From Candidatus Saccharimonadales bacterium (GTDB lineage Bacteria; Patescibacteriota; Saccharimonadia; Saccharimonadales; UBA7683): a DNA stretch of 64,000 nt. Positions within the stretch are counted from its first letter, which is position 1; the number at the start of each line of letters is the position of its first letter. Below are positions 3,584 through 44,161 of this stretch, one piece after another. The position numbers and the translations under genes are program-made. Below the pieces are notes generated by a model that worked only from the letters and a program-made list of their open reading frames with translations, did no database searches and had not been told where the DNA came from. The stretch lies in contig JAXMAA010000001.1 in assembly GCA_046350615.1 (NCBI GenBank), positions 72,480-136,479 of the forward strand, read 5' to 3'.

Positions 3584-4876
3584 TCAGCGAATAAGCTCAT
3601 ACGCCCAGGGTTGAGACCGACCAAGCTTTTGGTAATCAAACGAGCTTTCAGGAACCTCAAAAGATAGTTGATACTCAGAACTGCGTCTTTGTGCCATATG
3701 ATACGCCGTGCGAAGCTCCCCTGTTTCGCCAACACATTCAAATGGCTTCATAACACCGTCGATCCCCAGTAATCCCTTAAATGTTTCCGTAAGGCCTGGC
3801 TTTGCAAACAAATCCTGGCCGCCAAAGAGCATTCTAAGCTGCTCCGGTTCTATAAACGGCGCAAACAAAAGATAGCTATTGGCACATTTCGGGCAATCAC
3901 CACACCATTGAAGCTGGCTATTATCCGCGCCTTGCTGATAATTAGCTTGGTTACATGAGGAAAATGTGTGCCCAAATTGCTCCCAGGCATGCTTTGTGAA
4001 AAGCTCGGCAATTTTAAGTTCCGAAAAACCCCGTAGAGGCGAACCAATCTGCATATCCGCCGAAACATACCTCTGAACATATTCACTTAACAATTGCTCG
4101 GCCTGCCACGCTTTTGACCATTGGTGATTAACTGGCATCTGTCCAATATATTCATGCGGCTCCTCGCCCTCTTGGCCGATCGCTGCCAATACCATGTTCT
4201 GACCATGGAGAATGGCATCAATCAGCGCATACGCCTCTACTATGTACGTTACTGGAACATGTCCGTTGAGGCCGCCGTTTGCCTTTGCCTGCATAAGCGC
4301 ATCTCTATCAATGTTTCGCTGAATAGTACGAAGTGGTGTACCAAGTGTATCAAGAACCCGCGGGTGCGCCTGGCCAGAGGTAACATAGAGCGGTGTGAAA
4401 TCATGTTTCTTTTCACGAAGAAGTGTCGCCAGAAGTAGCGAATCTTTTCCGCCGCTTTGCAGAGCAACCGTACCAAGACCCTGATATGATGCCGCCGTGC
4501 GATGGACTCCTTCGCCTGCAAATACAGCTACATCCTCGAGTGCAAGATTGTTTTCAAACAAGAATTGGCTGAGACCTTCGGTGTATACTTTTTGCAAAAA
4601 CTGCGCCTGCCACAAATCTGGTTGGGCGTTCTTAAAAATCACTTTTTTGGTTGGGAAAGCTTTATAATACGATGCTCCCGCCACATAAAAAGCGAGTTTT
4701 AGTGCGCTTTCAAGCACTGCGCTACTTTGGCCAACTTGGCTTTGTTCGTCAAATACAGCGGTTTCAGAAAAATGTCTCTGGCCGTCAAAACTGTAATTAA
4801 ACCGGGCAGTATGTGTTGCCTCATCATAGCTGTATGATTCAAAAACAAACGCCACGTATCGCGATTGATAACTCAT
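3584..4876 (-). CDS. PP-loop (SGGKDS) ATP-pyrophosphatase-superfamily protein, translationally coupled to murD; candidate MurL-type UDP-MurNAc-L-Ala-L-Glu epimerase
   Basis: It carries the motif LQSGGKDSLLLATLL. Its start overlaps the murD stop (ATGA at 4873-4876). The C-terminal half is Cys-rich (SSCNQ...WCGDCPKCANSY). Confidence 0.5.
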   Translation of the reverse strand: MSYQSRYVAFVFESYSYDEATHTARFNYSFDGQRHFSETAVFDEQSQVGQSSAVLESALKLAFYVAGASYYKAFPTKKVIFKNAQPDLWQAQFLQKVYTEGLSQFLFENNLALEDVAVFAGEGVHRTAASYQGLGTVALQSGGKDSLLLATLLREKKHDFTPLYVTSGQAHPRVLDTLGTPLRTIQRNIDRDALMQAKANGGLNGHVPVTYIVEAYALIDAILHGQNMVLAAIGQEGEEPHEYIGQMPVNHQWSKAWQAEQLLSEYVQRYVSADMQIGSPLRGFSELKIAELFTKHAWEQFGHTFSSCNQANYQQGADNSQLQWCGDCPKCANSYLLFAPFIEPEQLRMLFGGQDLFAKPGLTETFKGLLGIDGVMKPFECVGETGELRTAYHMAQRRSSEYQLSFEVPESSFDYQKLGRSQPWAYELIR

Positions 4877-11767: not shown

Positions 11768-13522
11768 CTAGTTGCTGCCGGAGTCCTCGCTGGGCTCCGA
11801 GCCAGGCTGCTGACGCTGGTCGAGCTCGTCGGCCATCGCCTGGATGCAGCTCACCAGCTGGTTGGGCGTCAGCTCACTGGGGTTCTGACCACAGAACTCG
11901 GTGTCGTTGCCGTCACCTTCGCTCTCGTTGTCGTTGCCCGTGGCACCAACGCTTACCAGCTGCGGCGTGATGTTGTCACTAGCGCTGATCTCCAGCCGGT
12001 AGACCACTCGCCCCTTCAGCTCGCCGAACGCCCGCCAGACGTCACCGTCGACAGGCGTGAACTCGACGAGCTTTCCACCGTTGCTGATGAACGTCCCAGC
12101 ATTCTTGGCCAGGTAGTCCAGCGCGTCGGCCTCCAGGTTGTCGATGTTGATCCTGCGCGGATCATCCTCACCGAGGATGTACACCGACAGCGAGTTGAGG
12201 CGTCCGCCGTCCACGACGTCGGCCGGGGTGATCGCATACGCGACGAAGAGCTCCGAAGTGCTCTTGCGCAACGTCAGCGGGGTCACCCACTCCAAGCGAC
12301 CGGTGGTCTTGTTCTTGAGCAAGTACTCACTGGTGTTGCCCGCCTGTGCCTCCGAGGTGGCCGGTTCGAAGCCGAAGCTTCGACGGTCCTCATTCTTGCG
12401 CCCGGCAGCCCACCTGGTCATGTCGCGTTGCCGCTCGACCAAGCTCATGGGGTACACCGGACCGGGGTAGTCGCCGGCCTTGGCCTCGCTGACATACGTC
12501 AGCTTGACCTGGCCGTCTTGACCCCGAACGATTATCAGCCCACCAGCCGTATCCACCGTGCGATCCTTGAACTGGATCTGCTTGGTGGTCGGGATCACCA
12601 CGATCGGCTCATCGCCGTCGCAGTAGCCCCACACGTCGGACTGCTCGTAGCGAAGCGCCGGGTAGCGCTCAGCCAACAGGTTGGGCAGCGAGTTCCCTCG
12701 CTCACCAGCGAATGCTCGGTCGAGGTCGTACTTGCCCTCGAACTTGCAAGTGGTGGTCTGGTTGGAACCATCCCACTCGCTGACGCCGCCCAGTCCCTGC
12801 TCACGACCGCTGCCGTCGAGCACACCGCTCCAGCGGGCGGGCTGCTCGCCCCACTCGTTGAGGTATGTCACCATGCCCTCGTTGAGCGAGATCCGCTGCT
12901 CGTCACCACTGGTCCGCTTGATGGCGAAGACGGCACCGTCGAGGGAGCCGATGCGCGGCTCCCAACCCGCCTGGTCCAGCTCACCCTCCTTGATGCAGGT
13001 GTGCATGTCGCTGGCGTCCACCATGTCACAGCCGAAACGGCTGGACTCGGTGGCACCCTCCAGGAGGTAGCGCACCGTCGCCGGTGTCTCATCCAGGTTG
13101 GGAACGATGAAGGTCGTGGCCCGGTTGTAGTACCGGGCCTCGTCCTTGTCGTTATCCCAACCGACGGTGGTCAGCTTGAACACGCCGCCCACAGTGGCAA
13201 GCACCATGATGATCGCGATGACCAAGCTGGCACCCTGCCGAGAGACGGTGTGGCGCTCCGTTGTGCCGTAGTACCGACCTCGGTCGTACTCCTCGACGTC
13301 CGCCATCACGATGACAGCAGAGCCGATGAAGCCAACCGTGAGCCAGGCCCACAGCCACCACGAGCCCGACCAGACATTGGCCAGCATGAACTGGTCCATG
13401 TACTGGTTGAGCTTCATGCCTTCGAAGAGGAATCGGCGCACGAGCCACACCAGGCCGTATAGGCCTGGCATCCACCCCCACCATGCGGCGAGGGCTCCGA
13501 GCTTACCCTTCCAGGTTCGCAT
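11768..13522 (-). CDS. high-GC, horizontally acquired membrane protein of unknown function (584 aa; 3 N-terminal TM helices, large extracytoplasmic domain, acidic tail)
   Basis: This is the longest ORF in the region. The predicted TM segments are LGALAAWWGWMPGLYGLVWLV, SWWLWAWLTVGFIGSAVIVMA and ASLVIAIIMVLATVGGVFKL. The local sequence is visibly G/C-rich, and many overlapping ORFs appear in other frames only here. Confidence 0.75.
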   Translation of the reverse strand: MRTWKGKLGALAAWWGWMPGLYGLVWLVRRFLFEGMKLNQYMDQFMLANVWSGSWWLWAWLTVGFIGSAVIVMADVEEYDRGRYYGTTERHTVSRQGASLVIAIIMVLATVGGVFKLTTVGWDNDKDEARYYNRATTFIVPNLDETPATVRYLLEGATESSRFGCDMVDASDMHTCIKEGELDQAGWEPRIGSLDGAVFAIKRTSGDEQRISLNEGMVTYLNEWGEQPARWSGVLDGSGREQGLGGVSEWDGSNQTTTCKFEGKYDLDRAFAGERGNSLPNLLAERYPALRYEQSDVWGYCDGDEPIVVIPTTKQIQFKDRTVDTAGGLIIVRGQDGQVKLTYVSEAKAGDYPGPVYPMSLVERQRDMTRWAAGRKNEDRRSFGFEPATSEAQAGNTSEYLLKNKTTGRLEWVTPLTLRKSTSELFVAYAITPADVVDGGRLNSLSVYILGEDDPRRINIDNLEADALDYLAKNAGTFISNGGKLVEFTPVDGDVWRAFGELKGRVVYRLEISASDNITPQLVSVGATGNDNESEGDGNDTEFCGQNPSELTPNQLVSCIQAMADELDQRQQPGSEPSEDSGSN

Positions 13523-13673
13523 CGTATCAGTTTCCTTTCAATTGGGAAATGTGAATATACGGGAAGTAACGGTCCCAACCGAGGTAAGCTCCTCAGCCAG
13601 AAGGACTTGCGCCCTCCCATATATACCGATGTGCTCTGGTACAACTACATATATGGAATGACCAAATCGATTA

Positions 13674-13697
13674 CGTGACATAATAAAAAATGTCACG
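13674..13697 (-). promoter_or_regulatory. palindromic operator-like site CGTGACAT-N8-ATGTCACG overlapping the predicted transcription start
   Basis: It is a perfect 8-bp inverted repeat separated by an 8-nt A/T spacer. It begins 6 nt downstream of the -10 box at 13704-13709. Confidence 0.45.
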
Positions 13698-13703
13698 CCT
13701 ATA

Positions 13704-13732
13704 ATTATAGCAAAAATGATCTACTTTGTCAA
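13704..13732 (-). promoter_or_regulatory. perfect-consensus sigma-70 promoter (TTGACA-17-TATAAT with TGC extension) facing the high-GC gene
   Basis: The minus strand reads TTGACAaagtagatcatttttgcTATAAT, with the -35 at 13727-13732 and the -10 at 13704-13709. Confidence 0.7.
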
Positions 13733-13937
13733 TACTCTAACCCTGTTGAGTAAATGAGGTGCTAAAAAATACTGCGACCACAATAATATCCTCTAGAGGC
13801 CGAGAAAATGACGAGTTATAAAGCAAAGCAGTTACACGAGTTTATCTGAATTTACAGATGTAACTCTAATGGTGTCCTCACTCCGTCTTACAACGATTTG
13901 CTGGAAGGTGCGATCAGCTTTAACTGACCATAAAAAC

Positions 13938-13966
13938 ATTATAGAGCATACTCTACTGTATGTCAA
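13938..13966 (-). promoter_or_regulatory. second perfect-consensus sigma-70 promoter (TTGACA-17-TATAAT), just outside the IS30 end
   Basis: The minus strand reads TTGACAtacagtagagtatgctcTATAAT, with the -35 at 13961-13966 and the -10 at 13938-13943. I see no convincing ORF before the next promoter. Confidence 0.6.
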
Positions 13967-13988
13967 GAGATCTATCCTTGAAACAGGG

Positions 13989-15100
13989 CTGCTCTCAACT
14001 ACTCAGCGCAACATAACCTCGTTGGCTGTGGCTTCTCCTTTCTCAGCGAGTAGCTGGCTAAATGCTTCATAGGGTGTCCGGAATTCTAAAGCCTTACGTG
14101 GCCTGCTGTTAAGCAGGTCTTGCACGTACTTGACCTCCACTCGACTGATCTTAGTAAACTCGGTACCTTTGGGGAAGAACTGTCTAATGAGGCCGTTGGT
14201 GTTTTCATTCGTTCCACGCTGCCAAGGGCTTTGTGGGTCAGCAAAGTAGACCTGCATCTTGGTTTGCTCAGTAAAGAGTTTGTGGCGAGCCATCTCGCTG
14301 CCGCAGTCGTAGGTCAGCGTTAGCTTCATTTGCTCTGGTAGGCTCGTAAGCTCCGCGGCAAAGCGTGCGGCTACATGTTCAGCATGTTTGCTTGCGACCG
14401 GTACTAGAATAACCGTCCGGGTTGTACGCTCCACCAATGTGCCAAGCGCCGAGTGACCGCCCTTACCAATAATAAGGTCACCCTCCCAGTGGCCGGGAAT
14501 AATCCGGTCTTCTACTTCTTTAGGGCGCTCGTCAATGCTCACCAGATCTGGTATGGGGCTGTGCTTGGTTCGGTCGCCAGCCGGTCGTTTGCTACCCCGG
14601 CTACGCCTGTGCTGCCGCAACGCTGCTTTGAGCTCTTTTTTGAGACTACCGCGAGCCAAGCAGAAGACGTACGTGTAGATGGTTTCGTGGCTAACGCGCA
14701 TACTCATGTCATTAGGATACTCGAGTTTTAGTCTGGCAGCTATCTGCTGCGGTGACCAGTGCTCAACTAAGATCTTGTGGTGTACATAATCCCTGAGCCG
14801 CTTATTAACCAACAGTTTGTTTGTCTTGCGGTGGTTGCGCTTGGCATCCGCCATTTCTTGGGCGAAGGTAGCTCGGTAATATTTGGGAGTATAGCGTAAC
14901 CGAGATAACTCTCGGCTCATGGTGCTAGTTTCACGCTTCAACTGACGAGCAATCTGACCAAGAGTGTGACCCTGAGCTAGACTGCGACTAATTTCTTCGC
15001 GTTCCTCGGCAGTGAGTCGTTTGTATGCAGTTGTTTTCATAGTAGTTATAGCCTACCAGCTGAAACTGCTTACGTTGCGTTAGTTATTTGAGAGTAGCAG
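13989..15100 (-). mobile_element. IS30-family insertion sequence (~1.1 kb)
   Basis: It contains a single transposase ORF and imperfect terminal inverted repeats: CTGCTCTCAACTACTCAGCGCAAC (13989-14012) versus the reverse complement of 15074-15100, CTGCTACTCTCAAATAACTAACGCAAC. The transposase stop lies inside the left IR. Confidence 0.75.
14003..15040 (-). CDS. IS30 family transposase
   Basis: It has an N-terminal HTH (LTAEEREEISRSLAQGHTLGQIARQLKRETSTMSRELSR), the segment HWSPQQIAARLK, and a DDE core (HWEGDLI...TLTYDCGSEMA...GTNENTNGLIRQFFPKGT). Confidence 0.95.
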   Translation of the reverse strand: MKTTAYKRLTAEEREEISRSLAQGHTLGQIARQLKRETSTMSRELSRLRYTPKYYRATFAQEMADAKRNHRKTNKLLVNKRLRDYVHHKILVEHWSPQQIAARLKLEYPNDMSMRVSHETIYTYVFCLARGSLKKELKAALRQHRRSRGSKRPAGDRTKHSPIPDLVSIDERPKEVEDRIIPGHWEGDLIIGKGGHSALGTLVERTTRTVILVPVASKHAEHVAARFAAELTSLPEQMKLTLTYDCGSEMARHKLFTEQTKMQVYFADPQSPWQRGTNENTNGLIRQFFPKGTEFTKISRVEVKYVQDLLNSRPRKALEFRTPYEAFSQLLAEKGEATANEVMLR

Positions 15101-38674: not shown

Positions 38675-38807
38675 CTGTTAAATCCTTTCGTTCTTCACGG
38701 AAAAGCTACTGCTGAGAAAATAAAGATATTTTCACCAGAGAAGGATCCCCTCTCCCGCTGATTAATGATTACTCATATAGAGTAACAGATATAAGAAGGT
38801 TGATCAA

Positions 38808-39239
38808 CTACTTACCGATAGAACGAGCACTAATAATCACACCAAACCCCGCTGCGAGGAGTATCAGACCAAAAAATTGTAAGCTGGAAACTTTTTCTTT
38901 AAAAATAAAGTAGCTTGCGATAGTTGAGAGAAAGATCGCACCGCCGAACACGATTGGTGCAACAATCCCTACCTTATTTACCGTGTAGGCCTTGTTAATT
39001 GCCATCACAAAAAAAGCGATCGAGACACCGCCCAGCATCGCAAAAACAATTCCGCTTTTACTATTTACGAATAGTTTTTTACCCAGCAACGGAATAACTG
39101 CCGCTATTGGCACCACTGCGGAAATCAAGTTAGTAATTGCAGCAGCAAGATTAGTGTTGGCATTTCTGGAAGCTGCGACTCCAAACATAATACCAATCGC
39201 ATAAAAAACCATCGCGAGAAGAATATATACCATTACCAT
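38808..39239 (-). CDS. small multi-TM membrane protein, EamA/DMT-like transporter half
   Basis: The 143-aa protein has 4-5 hydrophobic helices and a pattern resembling the EamA domain. Confidence 0.5.
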   Translation of the reverse strand: MVMVYILLAMVFYAIGIMFGVAASRNANTNLAAAITNLISAVVPIAAVIPLLGKKLFVNSKSGIVFAMLGGVSIAFFVMAINKAYTVNKVGIVAPIVFGGAIFLSTIASYFIFKEKVSSLQFFGLILLAAGFGVIISARSIGK

Positions 39240-39363
39240 AACTGTAGCAGATTGCTAACTAAATAACATCCGTGGAATAACCAGATATTTTCACGAGCTT
39301 AAGATGGTGTATTAAAATGGTTGGTGTTTTAAGGTTCGGGTAGAATTAAACGCCTGAAATGTA

Positions 39364-39392
39364 TTGACTTTCTTATACAAGCATGCTACTAT
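39364..39392 (+). promoter_or_regulatory. strong sigma-70 promoter TTGACT-17-TACTAT (TGC-extended)
   Basis: The sequence is TTGACTttcttatacaagcatgcTACTAT. It is followed by a UUCG-tetraloop hairpin, TTGGCttcgGCCAA, at 39407-39420. Confidence 0.65.
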
Positions 39393-39427
39393 TTAGTCAA
39401 GCTCAATTGGCTTCGGCCAACAGAGTA

Positions 39428-39599
39428 AAGAAGGAGGGCGAGTTGATCTCGCTAACTTGTGCTCATTCGTATGAATTCGAGCACAGCAGCTCGAAGATCC
39501 TTGTCGAGGTAGATCTCGAATCAAATATATTCATATTCTGAAGATCCCTACGCTAGCCACCCTCCTTCTTAACAACCAAACTAATACGCAAGGTGGCTA
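39428..39599 (+). promoter_or_regulatory. structured leader with mutually exclusive SD/anti-SD pairings upstream of the T4CP-like gene
   Basis: AAGAAGGAGGG (39428-39438) is the exact complement of CCCTCCTTCTT (39560-39570). TAGCCACC (39554-39561) is the exact complement of GGTGGCTA (39592-39599), which contains the SD of the 39604 gene. Confidence 0.5.
39443..39541 (+). CDS. 32-codon leader sORF (MISLTCAHSYEFEHSSSKILVEVDLESNIFIF)
   Basis: It is not in the track because it is under 60 aa. It starts at TTG, 5 nt after a strong AAGGAGGG SD, and ends in TGA at 39539-39541. Confidence 0.35.
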   Translation: MISLTCAHSYEFEHSSSKILVEVDLESNIFIF

Positions 39600-39603
39600 C
39601 GGC

Positions 39604-42291
39604 GTGACAATATTTTTGATCTTACTTCTAACATTGCTTGCTACGGGAGCAATATTTTTTATTTTCAACCTCTTTTTAGACACAAAAAAGAAACATGCGT
39701 GGTTTAATGCCATGGAATCGAAGGTGCTACTTATAGAAATACCTCGCACAAACGATAAAAAAGAGCTTTCGGCCGAACACATGTTTGCAAGCTTGCACGG
39801 TATTTTAAAAAACAAACGCGAGCTAAAAGCGCATCAAGAATATCAAGAACATATCGGGTTTGAGATTGTCAGTATCGGTAATAAAATTCAGTTTTATATC
39901 TGGACACCGGCTATGCTTACCTCTTTTGTGGAAGGGCAAGTATATGCTCAATATCCCGAGGCTCAGATTAAACAAATTGATCCGGAAGATGATTATGTTC
40001 ACCAAATACCCGAAGGCCACTACCGTCAAGTAGTCGAGATCGGCTTAACCGAAAATGAGACTCTGCCAATTAAAACATTCCTCAGCTTTGAGGTGGATCC
40101 ACTCGCCGCCATTACGGCAACACTTACCAAGCTCGAGGCAGAAAACGAGATGCTTGGTATTCAAATTCTGGCCAGACCTGTTGATGATACATGGCACAAA
40201 AATTCAGCCAAAAAAGCAGAGTTAATTAAAAATGGCGGTGGTTCATCAATCTCAAGACATGGCTGGCTTGCGCAAACCACAGGCGCACTTTGGAAGCCAC
40301 CGGAAGAAACCACCACTGCGACAAAATCTGAAATTTCAGAACGTGACAAAACTCGCATTACAGCTATTGAAGAAAAAAGCCGCAAACTTGGCTATCAAGT
40401 TAAAATCCGGGTTATTTATAGTAGTCCGCCCGAGGTACAACTCAGCTCAAGAATGAAGATTCAAGCACTACTAGGGGCATTTAAGCAGTTTAATACCACC
40501 AATTTGAACGGCTTTAAACAAACCACCAGCAAGCTAGAAGATTTTGATAAATATAAAGCTCGTAGTTTCTTCGATAAAGGTTTTATACTTAATATCGAAG
40601 AGCTCGCTAGCGTGTACCACCTCCCCCACAGCAACGTAGCCACCCCCGGAATCGTCTGGGCACGTGCACGAACCGGCGAGCCACCATCAAACTTACCTAT
40701 CTATACGCCGGGTTCGGTTGATATCAGCCCTATCGGCGTTACAACATTCCGAGGTGATTATCAGTACTTTGGCCTTACCCGTCGCGATCGTGGCCGTCAC
40801 GTATATATTATTGGTCAAACTGGCGTTGGTAAAAGTGGTCTACTAGAGCTTATGACGTCGGCAGATATTACCACCAATCAAGGATTTGCGCTGATTGACC
40901 CGCATGGTGATTTTGCCATCAATACCCTCCAACGAATTGCCCCAGAACGAATTAAAGACGTTATCTATTTCAATCCGGCCGATACCGAATTCCCCATTGG
41001 TTTTAATCCACTTGAGGTACAGAACGAATCGCAAAAAACACTGGTAGCTTCAGAAATCATCGGTTCGCTCAAGAAAATGTTTGATAGCTGGGGGCCACGC
41101 CTCGAATACATTTTGCGCTACACCATCCTCTCTTTGCTAGAATACCCCAACACAACCATGCTTGATATCACTCGCCTGCTGACCGATAACAAGTTTCAGA
41201 AAGAGGTCGTGAGCCGAGTGACCGACCCTGTTGTTCGCAACTTTTGGGATAAAGAGTACGCCAGCTGGAACGAAAAATTTAGAACTGAAGCTGTTGCGCC
41301 AATTTTAAATAAAGTCGGCGCCTTCACTGCAAATCCTATCATTCGCAATATCGTTGGCCAGCCAACCAGTGGCTTTAATGTTCGTCAGGTTATGGATGAA
41401 GGCAAGATCTTGGTTATGAACCTTTCGCGCGGCTTAATTGGCGAGGATAACGCCGCTATTCTTGGCTCCCTGCTAGTTACCAAAGTACAGCTTGCTGCCA
41501 TGAGCCGAGCCGACATTGCAAAAGTTGAAGATCGCCGCCCCTTCTACTTTTATGTTGATGAGTTTCAAAACTTTGCCACCGAATCGTTTGCAACCATCCT
41601 CAGCGAGGCTCGCAAATATGGCCTCAACCTCACCATTGCTAATCAGTATATTTCCCAGATGATACCCGAGGTCAGCGGTGCCGTATTTGGCAACGTGGGA
41701 AGCATTATATCGTTCCGGGTTAGTCCTGAGGACGCAACCTCATTGCAAAAATACTTTGAACCGCAGTTTGAGGCTGCCGACTTAATTCAACTCAATAACC
41801 GCGACTTTCTGGCGAACCTTTCAATCGGGGGTGAAAAAACTGTACCATTTTCAGCCCGAACCATGGATTTGCCCGGATATATAGAGGGTTCAATTGCACA
41901 GATAATAGTACACAACCGTCAACTTTTTGCACACCCTAAGGCTGAGATTGAAGCCTTAATTCGCGGGACAAAAGAACATCCCACAAGCAGTCAACAAAAA
42001 TCAACTCCCACCACGCCACGGGTTTTTGATAGAAATACTGCCACACAGAAGCTTGCCCGTTCCGCTCTGGGTGTTGAGCAACTCACGCATGCTGTTCCCG
42101 AACAAACTGAGTCTGTCGGCGCCATCAACACAAAATCTTCAGATCAAGCGCCCATCGAAAGCACAAAGAAGAAGAAAACTCGCCGTGGCAAACGTGGCGG
42201 CAAGAAAAAAGCCCAAGCACAACCTCCAGAAGGCCCACCCACAGCTCCTAACTCAAACAATAGCGAAGAGACAGTGTATCTCCGGAAGTAA
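39604..42291 (+). CDS. membrane-anchored P-loop ATPase of the VirD4/TraD/TraG (type IV coupling protein-like) family, 895 aa
   Basis: It has an N-terminal TM (IFLILLLTLLATGAIFFIFNLFL), Walker A HVYIIGQTGVGKSGLLELM followed by IDPHGDF, Walker B FYFYVDEFQNFAT, the segment LTIANQYISQM, and a basic low-complexity tail KKKKTRRGKRGGKKK. Confidence 0.7.
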   Translation: MTIFLILLLTLLATGAIFFIFNLFLDTKKKHAWFNAMESKVLLIEIPRTNDKKELSAEHMFASLHGILKNKRELKAHQEYQEHIGFEIVSIGNKIQFYIWTPAMLTSFVEGQVYAQYPEAQIKQIDPEDDYVHQIPEGHYRQVVEIGLTENETLPIKTFLSFEVDPLAAITATLTKLEAENEMLGIQILARPVDDTWHKNSAKKAELIKNGGGSSISRHGWLAQTTGALWKPPEETTTATKSEISERDKTRITAIEEKSRKLGYQVKIRVIYSSPPEVQLSSRMKIQALLGAFKQFNTTNLNGFKQTTSKLEDFDKYKARSFFDKGFILNIEELASVYHLPHSNVATPGIVWARARTGEPPSNLPIYTPGSVDISPIGVTTFRGDYQYFGLTRRDRGRHVYIIGQTGVGKSGLLELMTSADITTNQGFALIDPHGDFAINTLQRIAPERIKDVIYFNPADTEFPIGFNPLEVQNESQKTLVASEIIGSLKKMFDSWGPRLEYILRYTILSLLEYPNTTMLDITRLLTDNKFQKEVVSRVTDPVVRNFWDKEYASWNEKFRTEAVAPILNKVGAFTANPIIRNIVGQPTSGFNVRQVMDEGKILVMNLSRGLIGEDNAAILGSLLVTKVQLAAMSRADIAKVEDRRPFYFYVDEFQNFATESFATILSEARKYGLNLTIANQYISQMIPEVSGAVFGNVGSIISFRVSPEDATSLQKYFEPQFEAADLIQLNNRDFLANLSIGGEKTVPFSARTMDLPGYIEGSIAQIIVHNRQLFAHPKAEIEALIRGTKEHPTSSQQKSTPTTPRVFDRNTATQKLARSALGVEQLTHAVPEQTESVGAINTKSSDQAPIESTKKKKTRRGKRGGKKKAQAQPPEGPPTAPNSNNSEETVYLRK

Positions 42292-42471: not shown

Positions 42472-42547
42472 TGTCAGGTTATATCTAAGCGCGCCTGCAG
42501 CCCTGTCCACTGCTAACCGCCCAAACTAATTGGACTTGAAGGTATTT

Positions 42548-42916
42548 ATGAAGAAAGATCTGCACCCAACAGATTACCGCCTGGTTGTGTTCCAGGATAC
42601 ATCAAGTAATTTTAAAATTTTGACCCGCTCTACCGCTGCCTCAAACGAGACTATCAAGTGGGAAGACGGCAACGAATATCCGCTCATTAAAGTACACGTT
42701 TCAAGCGCCTCTCACCCATTCTTCACCGGTGAAGAAAAAGTTCTCGACATCGAAGGCCGCGTCGACAAGTTCAAAGCCCGCGCTGAAGCTGCCGCGAAAG
42801 CCAGAGAAGAAAAGCAAGCAAAAATCGCAACTGCCAAAGAAACTGAAAAGAAACCAGCAAAGAAAACTGCTGAGAAAGAAGAAACAACCGAAGTCGAAAC
42901 TAGTTCACAGGAATGA
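42548..42916 (+). CDS. rpmE: 50S ribosomal protein L31 (type B, no CxxC) with a Lys/Glu/Ala-rich C-terminal extension
   Basis: The protein reads [17 protein letters not shown]...[24 protein letters not shown], followed by ~45 charged residues. I prefer the ATG at 42548, which is preceded by GAAGG. Confidence 0.9.
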
Positions 42917-44161
42917 GCTACTTCTTTGCTGCTGGTAATCCCAGTTTTGAATTACCGTTGGCCTAATTGTTTGGAGCCACTCTTCTGCACTTGCGCGCTG
43001 CAAATCTTCGAGGCGTTGGAGTGCAGCCTTTGCCATTTCATCTACCTCATATGGACTAAGGTATTGAAAGTAATTATCTTGCATATTCATTAAAGTATAA
43101 CCGGAAAGCGATTGATCAAAATGGCGTCTCTGGTCTTCTAAAGTATACCAGCAAGCAAAGCCAGTCTTACCAACTAATCGCTCCGACTCATCGAGACCAT
43201 AGCCCGTTCTCATTTTGAGGCTCTTCACAGTGCCATCTTCGTCAAATTCAAATTTTGGCGTTTGGCGTATATTATCCGCTTCTTCGTATTGCTTTAGAAT
43301 ATTCGCCACAGTTGCCTCATCGTAAACTTGTGCGGTTAGAAAGCCAGCGAATTCTTGCATTTGATCAGCCGAAGCAAATCGCATAACAAAATCTTCTCCA
43401 TAAACCACGAAGTTGGCAATTTTATCAGAGCTACTTTTTAGAACGCACGTTTTACCATTAAGCCTGACGTATTTTATGTCCCCGTTTTCAACCCCAACTA
43501 CATCAGTTTCACGAACTGAGTCTTTATTTTTTATTTCAACAACCGGTAGTTTAAGTCTATTAGCGTGAGCCCTAATAATGTTTGCCAGAGATTCATCAAA
43601 TGGTTTACCATCTGAGTTCACTTTTATGAAAAAGCCTTGTAGCTCGAGATTACCAGACTCAGTTGACCCAAGACCCACAACTTCGTTATAAGTATTTTCA
43701 CTTGACGCCGCTAGCAACTGATCTGGATCAAACTTTACATATCGCTCTGATTGTTTTCGCAACATATCTATATCACCACCATGTGTACCGACATCCCGCG
43801 AATGCGTTAAAATGACGTTATCTTCTGGCGCCGTTACAATCAACCCCGCATTTCCCCACGTACCGGTATGATCTTGATCTATTAATGACATAGACACTGC
43901 GACTCGATCACCTACTCTTTCCGGGTTGTCTATTAAAGATACAGTTTGGTCGCCAGGTTGCTCATCAGCACTCCCATAAATTCCTTCCTGGCTAAAACTC
44001 AACGCGGAAGCAAAAACCATCCTCTGACCTATGGGATTAATTGCGTGCACCAGATAACGGTAACTCTGTGGATTATGTTGCTCAGGCTCAGTCACATTAC
44101 CCCATAACTCAGTTCGAGGGGCTAAATGGTTTGGATTTTGAAGTGGAATATCTGCGCTCAT
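42905..44161 (-). CDS. hypothetical soluble protein (418 aa)
   Basis: It is a long clean ORF with a near-consensus promoter directly upstream. No family is recognised. Confidence 0.65.

Follow-up and report, generated by a model that had tools for sequence, protein, structure and literature searches.

The DNA analysed here, a stretch of 64,000 nucleotides (nt) referred to below as the window, is a chromosomal segment of a Candidatus Saccharibacteria genome, and positions 39399-39603 of it, directly in front of a gene for a type IV coupling protein (T4CP)-like ATPase, are best read as a structured 5′ untranslated leader of the ATPase messenger RNA (mRNA). The element is a real cis-acting leader RNA that was not found in Rfam, and according to our model its probable role is to tune or gate translation of the T4CP-like gene by way of an effector; the leader assignment together with the mechanism proposed below, taken as a whole, we regard as moderately probable. 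An initial annotation of the same DNA, made from its letters alone, had described a strong promoter, a 5′ hairpin, a small open reading frame (ORF) and a switch between Shine-Dalgarno (SD) and anti-SD segments in front of the ATPase gene. The sequence features that it listed all lie where it had placed them, and both of its inverted repeats, as well as the hairpin at 39458-64/39479-85, were found independently.

Leader set, promoter and 5′ hairpin

Ortholog loci of 64-100% amino acid (aa) identity were gathered by protein search and contig look-ups, and provided eight distinct complete leaders (the window, L002, L083, L084, L087, L175, L176 and L177) together with a ninth, L088, which is partial and broken off at a contig end; the leaders of L001 and L081 are identical to that of the window, that of L086 to L002 and that of L085 to L084. 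In all nine cases the leader immediately precedes, in the sense orientation, the gene for a T4CP ortholog of 69-100% aa identity. The flanking genes vary between these loci (an ABC transporter, rpsB or UvrD upstream; L31, SLT, YtxH and others downstream), and the leader element therefore travels with the ATPase gene. The promoter in front of it (Table 1) is of the TG-extended sigma-70 type and was listed independently as a TTGACT/TACTAT site by a promoter scan; its layout, TTGAYW-17-(TG)-TAnnAT, is found at equal distance in seven of the eight leaders, which bears out the promoter proposed in the initial annotation. Transcription would thus be expected to start at about 39399-39400.

The first helix of the leader, P0, begins 1-2 nt after this predicted start and is present in the minimum free energy (MFE) fold of 8/8 leaders. 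On strands picked by hand, a procedure that favours pairing and that was adopted for P0 and the distal P2 hairpin as MAFFT misaligns both, all 40 of the 40 cells of the P0 inner stem are paired, with 3-4 pair types per position, and the outer stem covaries across the leaders (GCUC/GAGU, UUCA/UGAA, UAUC/GAUA). The 5′ strand of P0 shares only 33% identity between leaders and the loop, UUCG in the window, varies in sequence, so that the TTGGC-TTCG-GCCAA hairpin of the initial annotation is conserved as a structure. From comparison of the leader sequences, the covariation of P0 is the clearest proof of selection acting on the plus-strand RNA.

The three-way junction

The leader is more stable in its fold than its shuffles (z = -3.5), and the predicted fold is a three-way junction that is closed by P1, a helix between an SD-like and an anti-SD-like strand, and that contains P2 and P3. 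A perfect complement of 11 bp such as that between the two P1 strands was reached in 1 of 300 dinucleotide shuffles of the 257-nt region, and P1, a helix worth 6-14 kcal/mol, is part of the MFE fold of every one of the eight leaders. The pair 39437-39561 is GC in three leaders, AU in three and GU in two, and 39432-39566 is AU, GU or UG; the 11-bp SD/anti-SD pairing recognized in the initial annotation is thus accompanied by compensatory and G.U changes. CTCCTT is kept in the 3′ strand of seven leaders out of eight, and in L087 a variant is found in which GGGAGUGC pairs with GCACUCCC. As the 5′ strand is 77% identical in pairwise comparison despite these pair changes, P1 appears to be constrained in sequence as well as in pairing; the genuine genes of the window use SDs of the AAGGAG type.

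P2 and P3 are two copies of one module, their duplication being evident from two direct repeats. The module consists of a lower stem of 2-4 bp, a bulge of 2 nt (1-3 nt in L087 and L177), an invariant GAUC/GAUC helix, a 1-nt bulge of any base and 2-3 further pairs. Covariation is seen in the lower stems and in the pairs on the far side of the bulge: in P2 the pair 39441-39501 is AU, GC or UG, in P3 the lower pairs are AU, GC, GU or UA, and the pair 39516-39541 of P3 is UA in five leaders and GC in two, a compensatory exchange. When the P1/P2/P3 model was scored on a sequence-only MAFFT alignment, 90.2% of cells were paired as compared to 42-56% with slid partners, six pairs had changes on both sides, and the observed measures were reached by 0-5 of 500 shuffles. 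P1 adjoins P2 without a spacer, the strand between P2 and P3 (J2/3) measures 3-4 nt in the window, and the strand between P3 and P1 (J3/1) measures 8-19 nt across the leaders. Invariant positions are located mostly inside the helices (GAUC, CUCG/CGA, GCUC/GAGC), and the junction strands vary in length and sequence. The covariation check for which the initial annotation had called is positive for P0, P1 and the flanks of P2 and P3; the small ORF is not conserved. The words CUCG, GCUC, CGAGC and GCUCGA could form alternative pairings around P2.

Table 1. Coordinates of the promoter, leader helices, junction strand, small ORF and ATPase gene in the window
Feature	Position	Strand	Sequence elements	Basis or remark
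Promoter	39364..39392	+	-35 TTGACT 39364-69; 17-nt spacer; TG 39384-85 (extended -10); -10 TACTAT 39387-92
P0, 5′-terminal hairpin	39401..39426	+	Outer stem GCUC 39401-04 / GAGU 39423-26; inner stem UUGGC 39407-11 / GCCAA 39416-20; UUCG loop	Predicted MFE folds and covariation
P1 5′ strand	39428..39438	+	AAGAAGGAGGG	SD-like; pairs with 39560-70
P1 3′ strand	39560..39570	+	CCCUCCUUCUU	Resembles 16S anti-SD
P2 stem	39439..39503	+	Lower stem CGAG 39439-42 / CUUG 39500-03; bulge UU 39443-44; core GAUC 39445-48 / GAUC 39496-99; bulged A39495; UCG 39449-51 / CGA 39492-94; distal hairpin UGUGCUC 39458-64 / GAGCACA 39479-85	Fold, covariation, repeats; distal hairpin also from inverted-repeat search
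P3 stem, near-copy of P2	39507..39549	+	Lower stem AGG 39507-09 / CCU 39547-49; bulge UA 39510-11; core GAUC 39512-15 / GAUC 39543-46; bulged A39542; UC 39516-17 / GA 39540-41; A/U-rich loop	Fold, covariation, direct repeats
J3/1 strand	39549..39561	+	UACGCUAGCCA + CC shared with P1	Complementary to ATPase SD and start codon
Small ORF	39443..39541	+	TTG-initiated, 32 codons	Present in window, not conserved
ATPase ribosome-binding site	39592..39606	+	SD GGUGG 39592-96; start GUG 39604-06
T4CP-like ATPase gene	39604..42291	+	GTG start 39604	895 aa; downstream of leader

Predicted pairing of J3/1 with the ribosome-binding site

In the ribosome-binding site (RBS) of the ATPase gene, GGTGG is located 7-8 nt before the start codon in seven of the eight complete leaders and in the partial L088. 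The window J3/1 strand can form a duplex with this RBS for which RNAduplex gives -14.3 kcal/mol (39555-59 with 39594-98, and 39549-54 with 39601-06), a value reached by none of 500 tail shuffles and by 19 of 500 shuffles of the junction strand. Its core is an 8-bp helix, TAGCCACC/GGTGGCTA; an inverted repeat of at least 8 bp is by itself common, occurring in 98 of 300 shuffles. J3/1 can pair with the ATPase SD, the start codon or both in about six of the nine leaders, and would do so with differing sequences (UAGCCA/UGGCUA, UAAGCC/GGCUUA, GUCUAC/GUGGAC and UUAGCACG/CGUGCUAA), the duplexes of the window, L083, L084 and L176 amounting to -11 to -14 kcal/mol. The window combines UAGCCA/UGGCUA with UACGCU/GGCGUG, and L176 combines UAAGCC/GGCUUA with CCAC/GUGG; in L083 the pairing is GAUUAGCACG/CGUGCUAAU, which spans the GUG, and L084 and L088 pair GUCUA(C) with (G)UGGAC at the SD and, farther upstream, GCGC with GCGC. 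The pairing is weak in L177. The initial annotation had assigned the 5′ part of the segment TAGCCACCCTCCTTCTT (39554-70) to pairing with GGTGGCTA (39592-99), and this part of its proposal recurs in several relatives and is weak or absent in the three leaders that are named below among the points against our reading.

The order of the strands is P1 5′ strand, J3/1, P1 3′ strand and RBS, so that the J3/1:RBS pairing crosses P1 and nested folding must pick one of the two pairings; the energies that it assigns to them are near-equal (-64.6 versus -65.9). The folding proposed as a check in the initial annotation recovers P1 in all eight MFE folds and leaves its two pairings nearly level. In terms of layout, P1 would serve as stem 1 of a pseudoknot and the J3/1:RBS helix as stem 2, stacked with a spacer of 0-1 nt in the window, L176 and L083; the P1 3′ strand is separated from the RBS strand by an A/C-rich loop of 21 nt. 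The two helices overlap by 2 nt in the window, where one of them loses two pairs, and not at all in L176 and L083. With so small an overlap and the strand order of a pseudoknot, mutual exclusivity is therefore not required by the sequence, and the strict exclusivity that the initial annotation had deduced from the two shared nucleotides is not supported, as both helices could form together.

No terminator-like site was found on the plus strand in 38700-40100, and there is none between the leader and the ATPase gene, on which ground a transcription attenuator was rejected. The only leader with such a site, albeit a weak one, is L087, in which an extra ~100 nt lies between P1 and the start codon (at ~355-427), the SD is GAGG instead of GGUGG, and the tail contains a hairpin, CCAGCAC-UAAUAAU-GUGCUGG, followed by UCUUUG; this long tail may be a different expression platform. 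A further complementarity, of 12 nt and 92%, between the P3 loop (39520-39531) and codons 3-6 of the ATPase gene (39609-39620) is not conserved in the seven relatives and was set aside, since it is probably due to chance in A/T-rich sequence.

Distribution of the leader

When the window and 95 loci, some 80 of them distant T4CP loci, were searched with R1, a covariance model of the leader, only the known leaders were recovered, and all matches to the leader element stood in front of T4CP genes. No second copy of the leader was found in the 64-kb window. A metagenome scan with the pattern GATCTCGC..GANKATCC..CTGANGATCC gave 83 matches, none of which was leader-like or preceded a T4CP gene; the 25 of these 83 that were inspected are GC-rich (0.47-0.74) sequence, coding in appearance. 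With the Rfam 15 covariance models no match was obtained in the 64-kb window at the gathering threshold, within 39200-39700 at E<=10, or in seven homologous loci at E<=1. Clusters of GATC are common elsewhere in the window and the loci, and one that was inspected (L081 5810-5993) is unrelated to the leader. As far as these searches reach, the leader element is confined to a narrow clade.

Proposed mechanism and its weaknesses

It is proposed that P0 protects the 5′ end of the mRNA, as would be expected from general knowledge of 5′-terminal stem-loops, and that J3/1 and the RBS form a pseudoknot stacked on P1, or an alternative helix, by which the RBS would be masked, so that the fold of the junction would set the frequency of initiation on the ATPase gene. 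The invariant twin GAUC-bulge stems would represent a putative recognition surface for an effector, which would shift the balance between the masked and the open RBS, and no leader peptide would take part. The effector would more likely be a dimeric or otherwise symmetric RNA-binding protein than a small ligand, because conservation resides in the helices and bulges of two equivalent modules and the junction strands vary. The SD-like and anti-SD-like strands of P1 look constrained beyond their pairing, so some interplay of this mimic with the 30S subunit is possible. Only tentatively do we suggest that the twin GAUC-stem junction is the sensor of a clade-restricted class of regulatory RNA, either a riboswitch or an operator for a dimeric protein, with P1 as a deliberate SD:anti-SD mimic; if this were true, the mimic could couple the translation decision to the availability of 30S subunits.

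Several observations weigh against this mechanism. The leader is absent upstream of the orthologs in L082 (P0006, 81% aa identity), L089-L091 (P0013, 65%) and L178 (P0012, 64%), where the intergenic regions are 122-150 nt long or, in L178, comprise 740 nt of unrelated sequence; judged from these loci the element was lost or gained within a narrow clade, and since close relatives do without it, regulation by this route is dispensable. With only eight distinct sequences, all from one narrow clade, the statistical support for covariation is weak, and several helices do not vary at all. P2 has a competitor in a further conserved hairpin inside it, UUCGAGC 39476-82 / GCUCGAA 39489-95 (UYGAGC/GCUYGA), which can form in most of the eight leaders, with G.U and some compensatory changes, and which leaves the inner fold of P2 unsettled. 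The J3/1:RBS pairing of L002, L175 and L087 is no better than chance, and the partner of J3/1 shifts among the SD, the start codon and a site upstream of the SD, which could in part be chance complementarity. Finally, the assignment of J3/1:RBS and P1 to the layout of an H-type pseudoknot is reasoned from topology, not computed.

Alternative explanations

The leader could instead be a constitutive device for stability or tuning, which protects the mRNA from 5′ decay, perhaps binds the 30S subunit and fixes translation at a low level, with neither effector nor switching. A 5′ hairpin with strong covariation placed 1-2 nt from the predicted transcript start would suit such a role, and the absence of the leader from close relatives fits a tuning device that can be lost. 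Moreover, the SD-like sequence, of the AAGGAGG type, lies about 30 nt from the predicted 5′ end and is without a start codon in most leaders, which resembles the STAB-SD of Bacillus thuringiensis cry3A, an SD-like element without a start codon that acts by binding of the 16S 3′ end and the 30S subunit (PMC4113751). In both cases a perfect SD-like sequence stands close to the 5′ end of a long leader, at a great distance from the real start codon, and does not direct translation; however, STAB-SD must be accessible, whereas the SD-like strand of the leader is paired with the internal anti-SD mimic in P1 in every predicted fold and would thus not be free for the 30S subunit. Stability alone also leaves unexplained the four invariant GAUC words with their duplicated bulged stems, as well as the recurrent complementarity to the RBS, and we regard an explanation by constitutive stability as unlikely.

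A second alternative is that the element is a free-standing, trans-acting small RNA that in this clade is read through into the ATPase gene. It derives from an element in L178 whose promoter shares TTGACTTTCT and TGCTAC with that of the window. The L178 element (~3975-4195, minus strand) is situated downstream of the T4CP gene and convergent with it, its promoter being TTGACTTTCT..TGCTACAAT, and no ORF of more than 36 codons occurs in the ~330 nt before the 3′ end of the T4CP gene. The RNA of ~175 nt would have a 5′ hairpin, a 9-bp closing helix AAGGCGAAG/CUUCGCCUU that is not SD-like, and a U-run after it; GAUCUC/GAGAUC stems and five GATC sites are present, the fold has a z of -5.7, and its score with R1 is 14.3 bits. 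Possibly this RNA is the leader in a free-standing or relocated form. The homology of the L178 element to the leader is weak, however, and in the eight leaders themselves neither a terminator nor a U-run follows P1, the distance from P1 to the start codon is only 33-100 nt, and without exception the element immediately precedes the T4CP gene in the sense orientation. A small RNA acting in trans is consequently rather improbable.

Still less probable is the leader-peptide switch put forward in the initial annotation, according to which ribosome loading on the small ORF decides which SD is sequestered by the anti-SD segment. The window does contain an SD, a TTG at a spacing of 4 nt and a 32-codon ORF, the two nested states are near-equal in energy, and blocking the SD-like strand in silico lowers the unpaired probability of the RBS in the window (0.38 to 0.15) and in L083 (0.48 to 0.29). 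In the window alone, the arrangement resembles leader-peptide attenuation or translational coupling of the erm and cat type, where an SD and a short ORF overlap alternative pairings; the difference is that the ORF lacks conservation. Only the window and L175 have a start codon at SD distance, and in L175 the peptide is unrelated after MISL and of 14 aa as compared to 32; such a start is absent in L083, L084, L087, L176 and L177. The window TTG is replaced by TCG in L083, L176 and L002, by TAG/TTAG in L084 and L177, and by GCG in L087; the nucleotides vary here because the start position coincides with the bulge 5′ of the first GAUC. In L002 an out-of-frame ATG lies at a distance of 14 nt, no ORF of at least 15 codons exists anywhere in the leader of L177, and the alignment of the window with L083 contains a 1-nt indel inside the ORF. 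Nor did the in silico block lower RBS accessibility in the other six of the eight leaders, so that a conserved switch is not supported. The loss of the start codon in most relatives largely refutes the leader-peptide switch, and the 32-codon ORF is, from its sequence, probably not a functional part of the leader but an accident of the window.

The weakest alternative, and one to which we attach hardly any probability, is a DNA-level element in which, with no role for RNA structure, a DNA-binding regulator would use the GATCTCG / GAAGATCC repeats and the four GATC sites as operators or methylation sites: GATC and its flanking words are indeed invariant and the repeats are direct as well as inverted, but the spacing of the paired words varies over 25-105 nt with pairing kept, several pairs are G.U, which at the DNA level would give mismatches, and C.A on the opposite strand, P0 and the P2/P3 flanks covary, and the covariance model scores 18 bits on the minus strand as compared to 131, and on variable spacing, G.U pairs and strand asymmetry the operator reading was rejected. 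Two motif-based candidates were likewise discarded. A hammerhead, suggested by CUGANGA and requiring GAAA and a cleavage site in addition, gave no Rfam hammerhead match, and UUGCCGA in L175 and CUGCAGA in L176 replace the motif; for a K-turn (CUGANGA/GAUGAUC), which requires tandem G.A pairs facing a 3-nt bulge, inspection of the opposite strand showed that it is without the GA needed.

Comparison with known regulatory leaders

The leader would work like known leaders that mask the RBS, and belongs to none of the families described in Rfam. In the rpsO/S15 and alpha-operon/S4 leaders of E. coli and in phage T4 gene 32, pseudoknots that mask the RBS set translation by the stability of their fold. 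Like operators of the rpsO/S15 type, the leader has a fold, here with a predicted pseudoknot, that takes in the downstream SD or start codon; here, however, the RBS pairing would be stacked on a helix that itself resembles an SD/anti-SD duplex, the pseudoknot loop would enclose a three-way junction bearing twin stems, and neither the sequence nor Rfam points to a relationship. The translational operator of E. coli thrS comprises two similar hairpins that are bound by a dimeric enzyme, and the presence of two near-identical stems ahead of the RBS likewise suggests that a symmetric effector would bind and compete with the ribosome; the stems of the leader are bulged GAUC/GAUC helices rather than mimics of an anticodon arm, and, as distinct from thrS, we know of no RNA-binding role for the downstream ATPase.

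Among translational riboswitches, the purine add riboswitch has a three-way-junction aptamer, and SAM-II and preQ1-II are pseudoknots that sequester the SD. With these the leader shares a conserved core closed by a junction and followed by a variable expression platform, an SD engaged in alternative or pseudoknot pairing, and a constant position 5′ of a single gene family. The conserved structured core and the covariation-supported stems in front of one gene family are features by which a riboswitch is recognized; against this, the most conserved nucleotides of the leader lie in helices and not in junctions or loops, J3/1 varying between 8 and 19 nt, no Rfam riboswitch was matched, and the element is confined to one small clade. 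Genes related to type IV secretion are known to be regulated in this way in gonococci, where 5′ untranslated RNA switches of the type IV secretion system genes traH and parA, tested by mutation, have leader stem-loops that occlude the start and set the protein level (PMC8716806). The gonococcal switches are unrelated to the leader in sequence and architecture and come from a different phylum.

A literature search returned no paper that describes a cis-regulatory or structured regulatory RNA in Patescibacteria or Saccharibacteria, and regulation in Patescibacteria has been described as largely unexplored (PMC11665869). A conserved, promoter-proximal leader dedicated to a T4CP-like gene would indicate that its expression is controlled after transcription, and with P1, J3/1 and the GAUC stems it offers a concrete handle on the signal that governs the ATPase; for genetic work in Saccharibacteria, the leader may also be of use as a native regulatory part. 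It has been seen in only one small clade and close relatives lack it, which limits its reach.

Gene and genomic setting

The protein encoded downstream of the leader has an N-terminal membrane segment followed by DUF8128, TrwB_AAD_bind and DUF87 domains, and its nearest relatives in the genome collection are metagenome-assembled genomes of Saccharibacteria. As it scores far under the cut-offs of the conjugative TraD/VirD4 equivalogs, the product of the 895-aa ORF is, by sequence criteria, an orphan T4CP-like ATPase. T4CP homologues are very common in Patescibacteria, where most of their genes stand apart from virB4 and their function is described as open (PMC12102498; PMC11665869); exaptation is one suggestion (PMC12102498). 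The neighbours of the ATPase gene are frr, tsf, rpsB and an EamA-like gene on the minus strand, followed by the genes for L31 type B and prfA. The L31 gene, of the type B (zinc-independent) class, is located at 42530-42916 on the same strand as the T4CP-like gene; it lies 110-240 nt 3′ of the T4CP-like gene in several genomes, and the same position is found in L081, L086 and L175. Between L31 and prfA, an ORF of 418 aa on the minus strand (42905-44161) is without a Pfam or NCBIfam match and, as listed, overlaps the 5′ end of the prfA ORF. Elsewhere in the window, the stretch 12001-14000 reaches a G+C content of up to 0.58 as compared to about 0.45 in the remainder; it contains a 584-aa ORF (11768-13522, minus strand) without a Pfam match, and long overlapping ORFs are present on the strand opposite to it.

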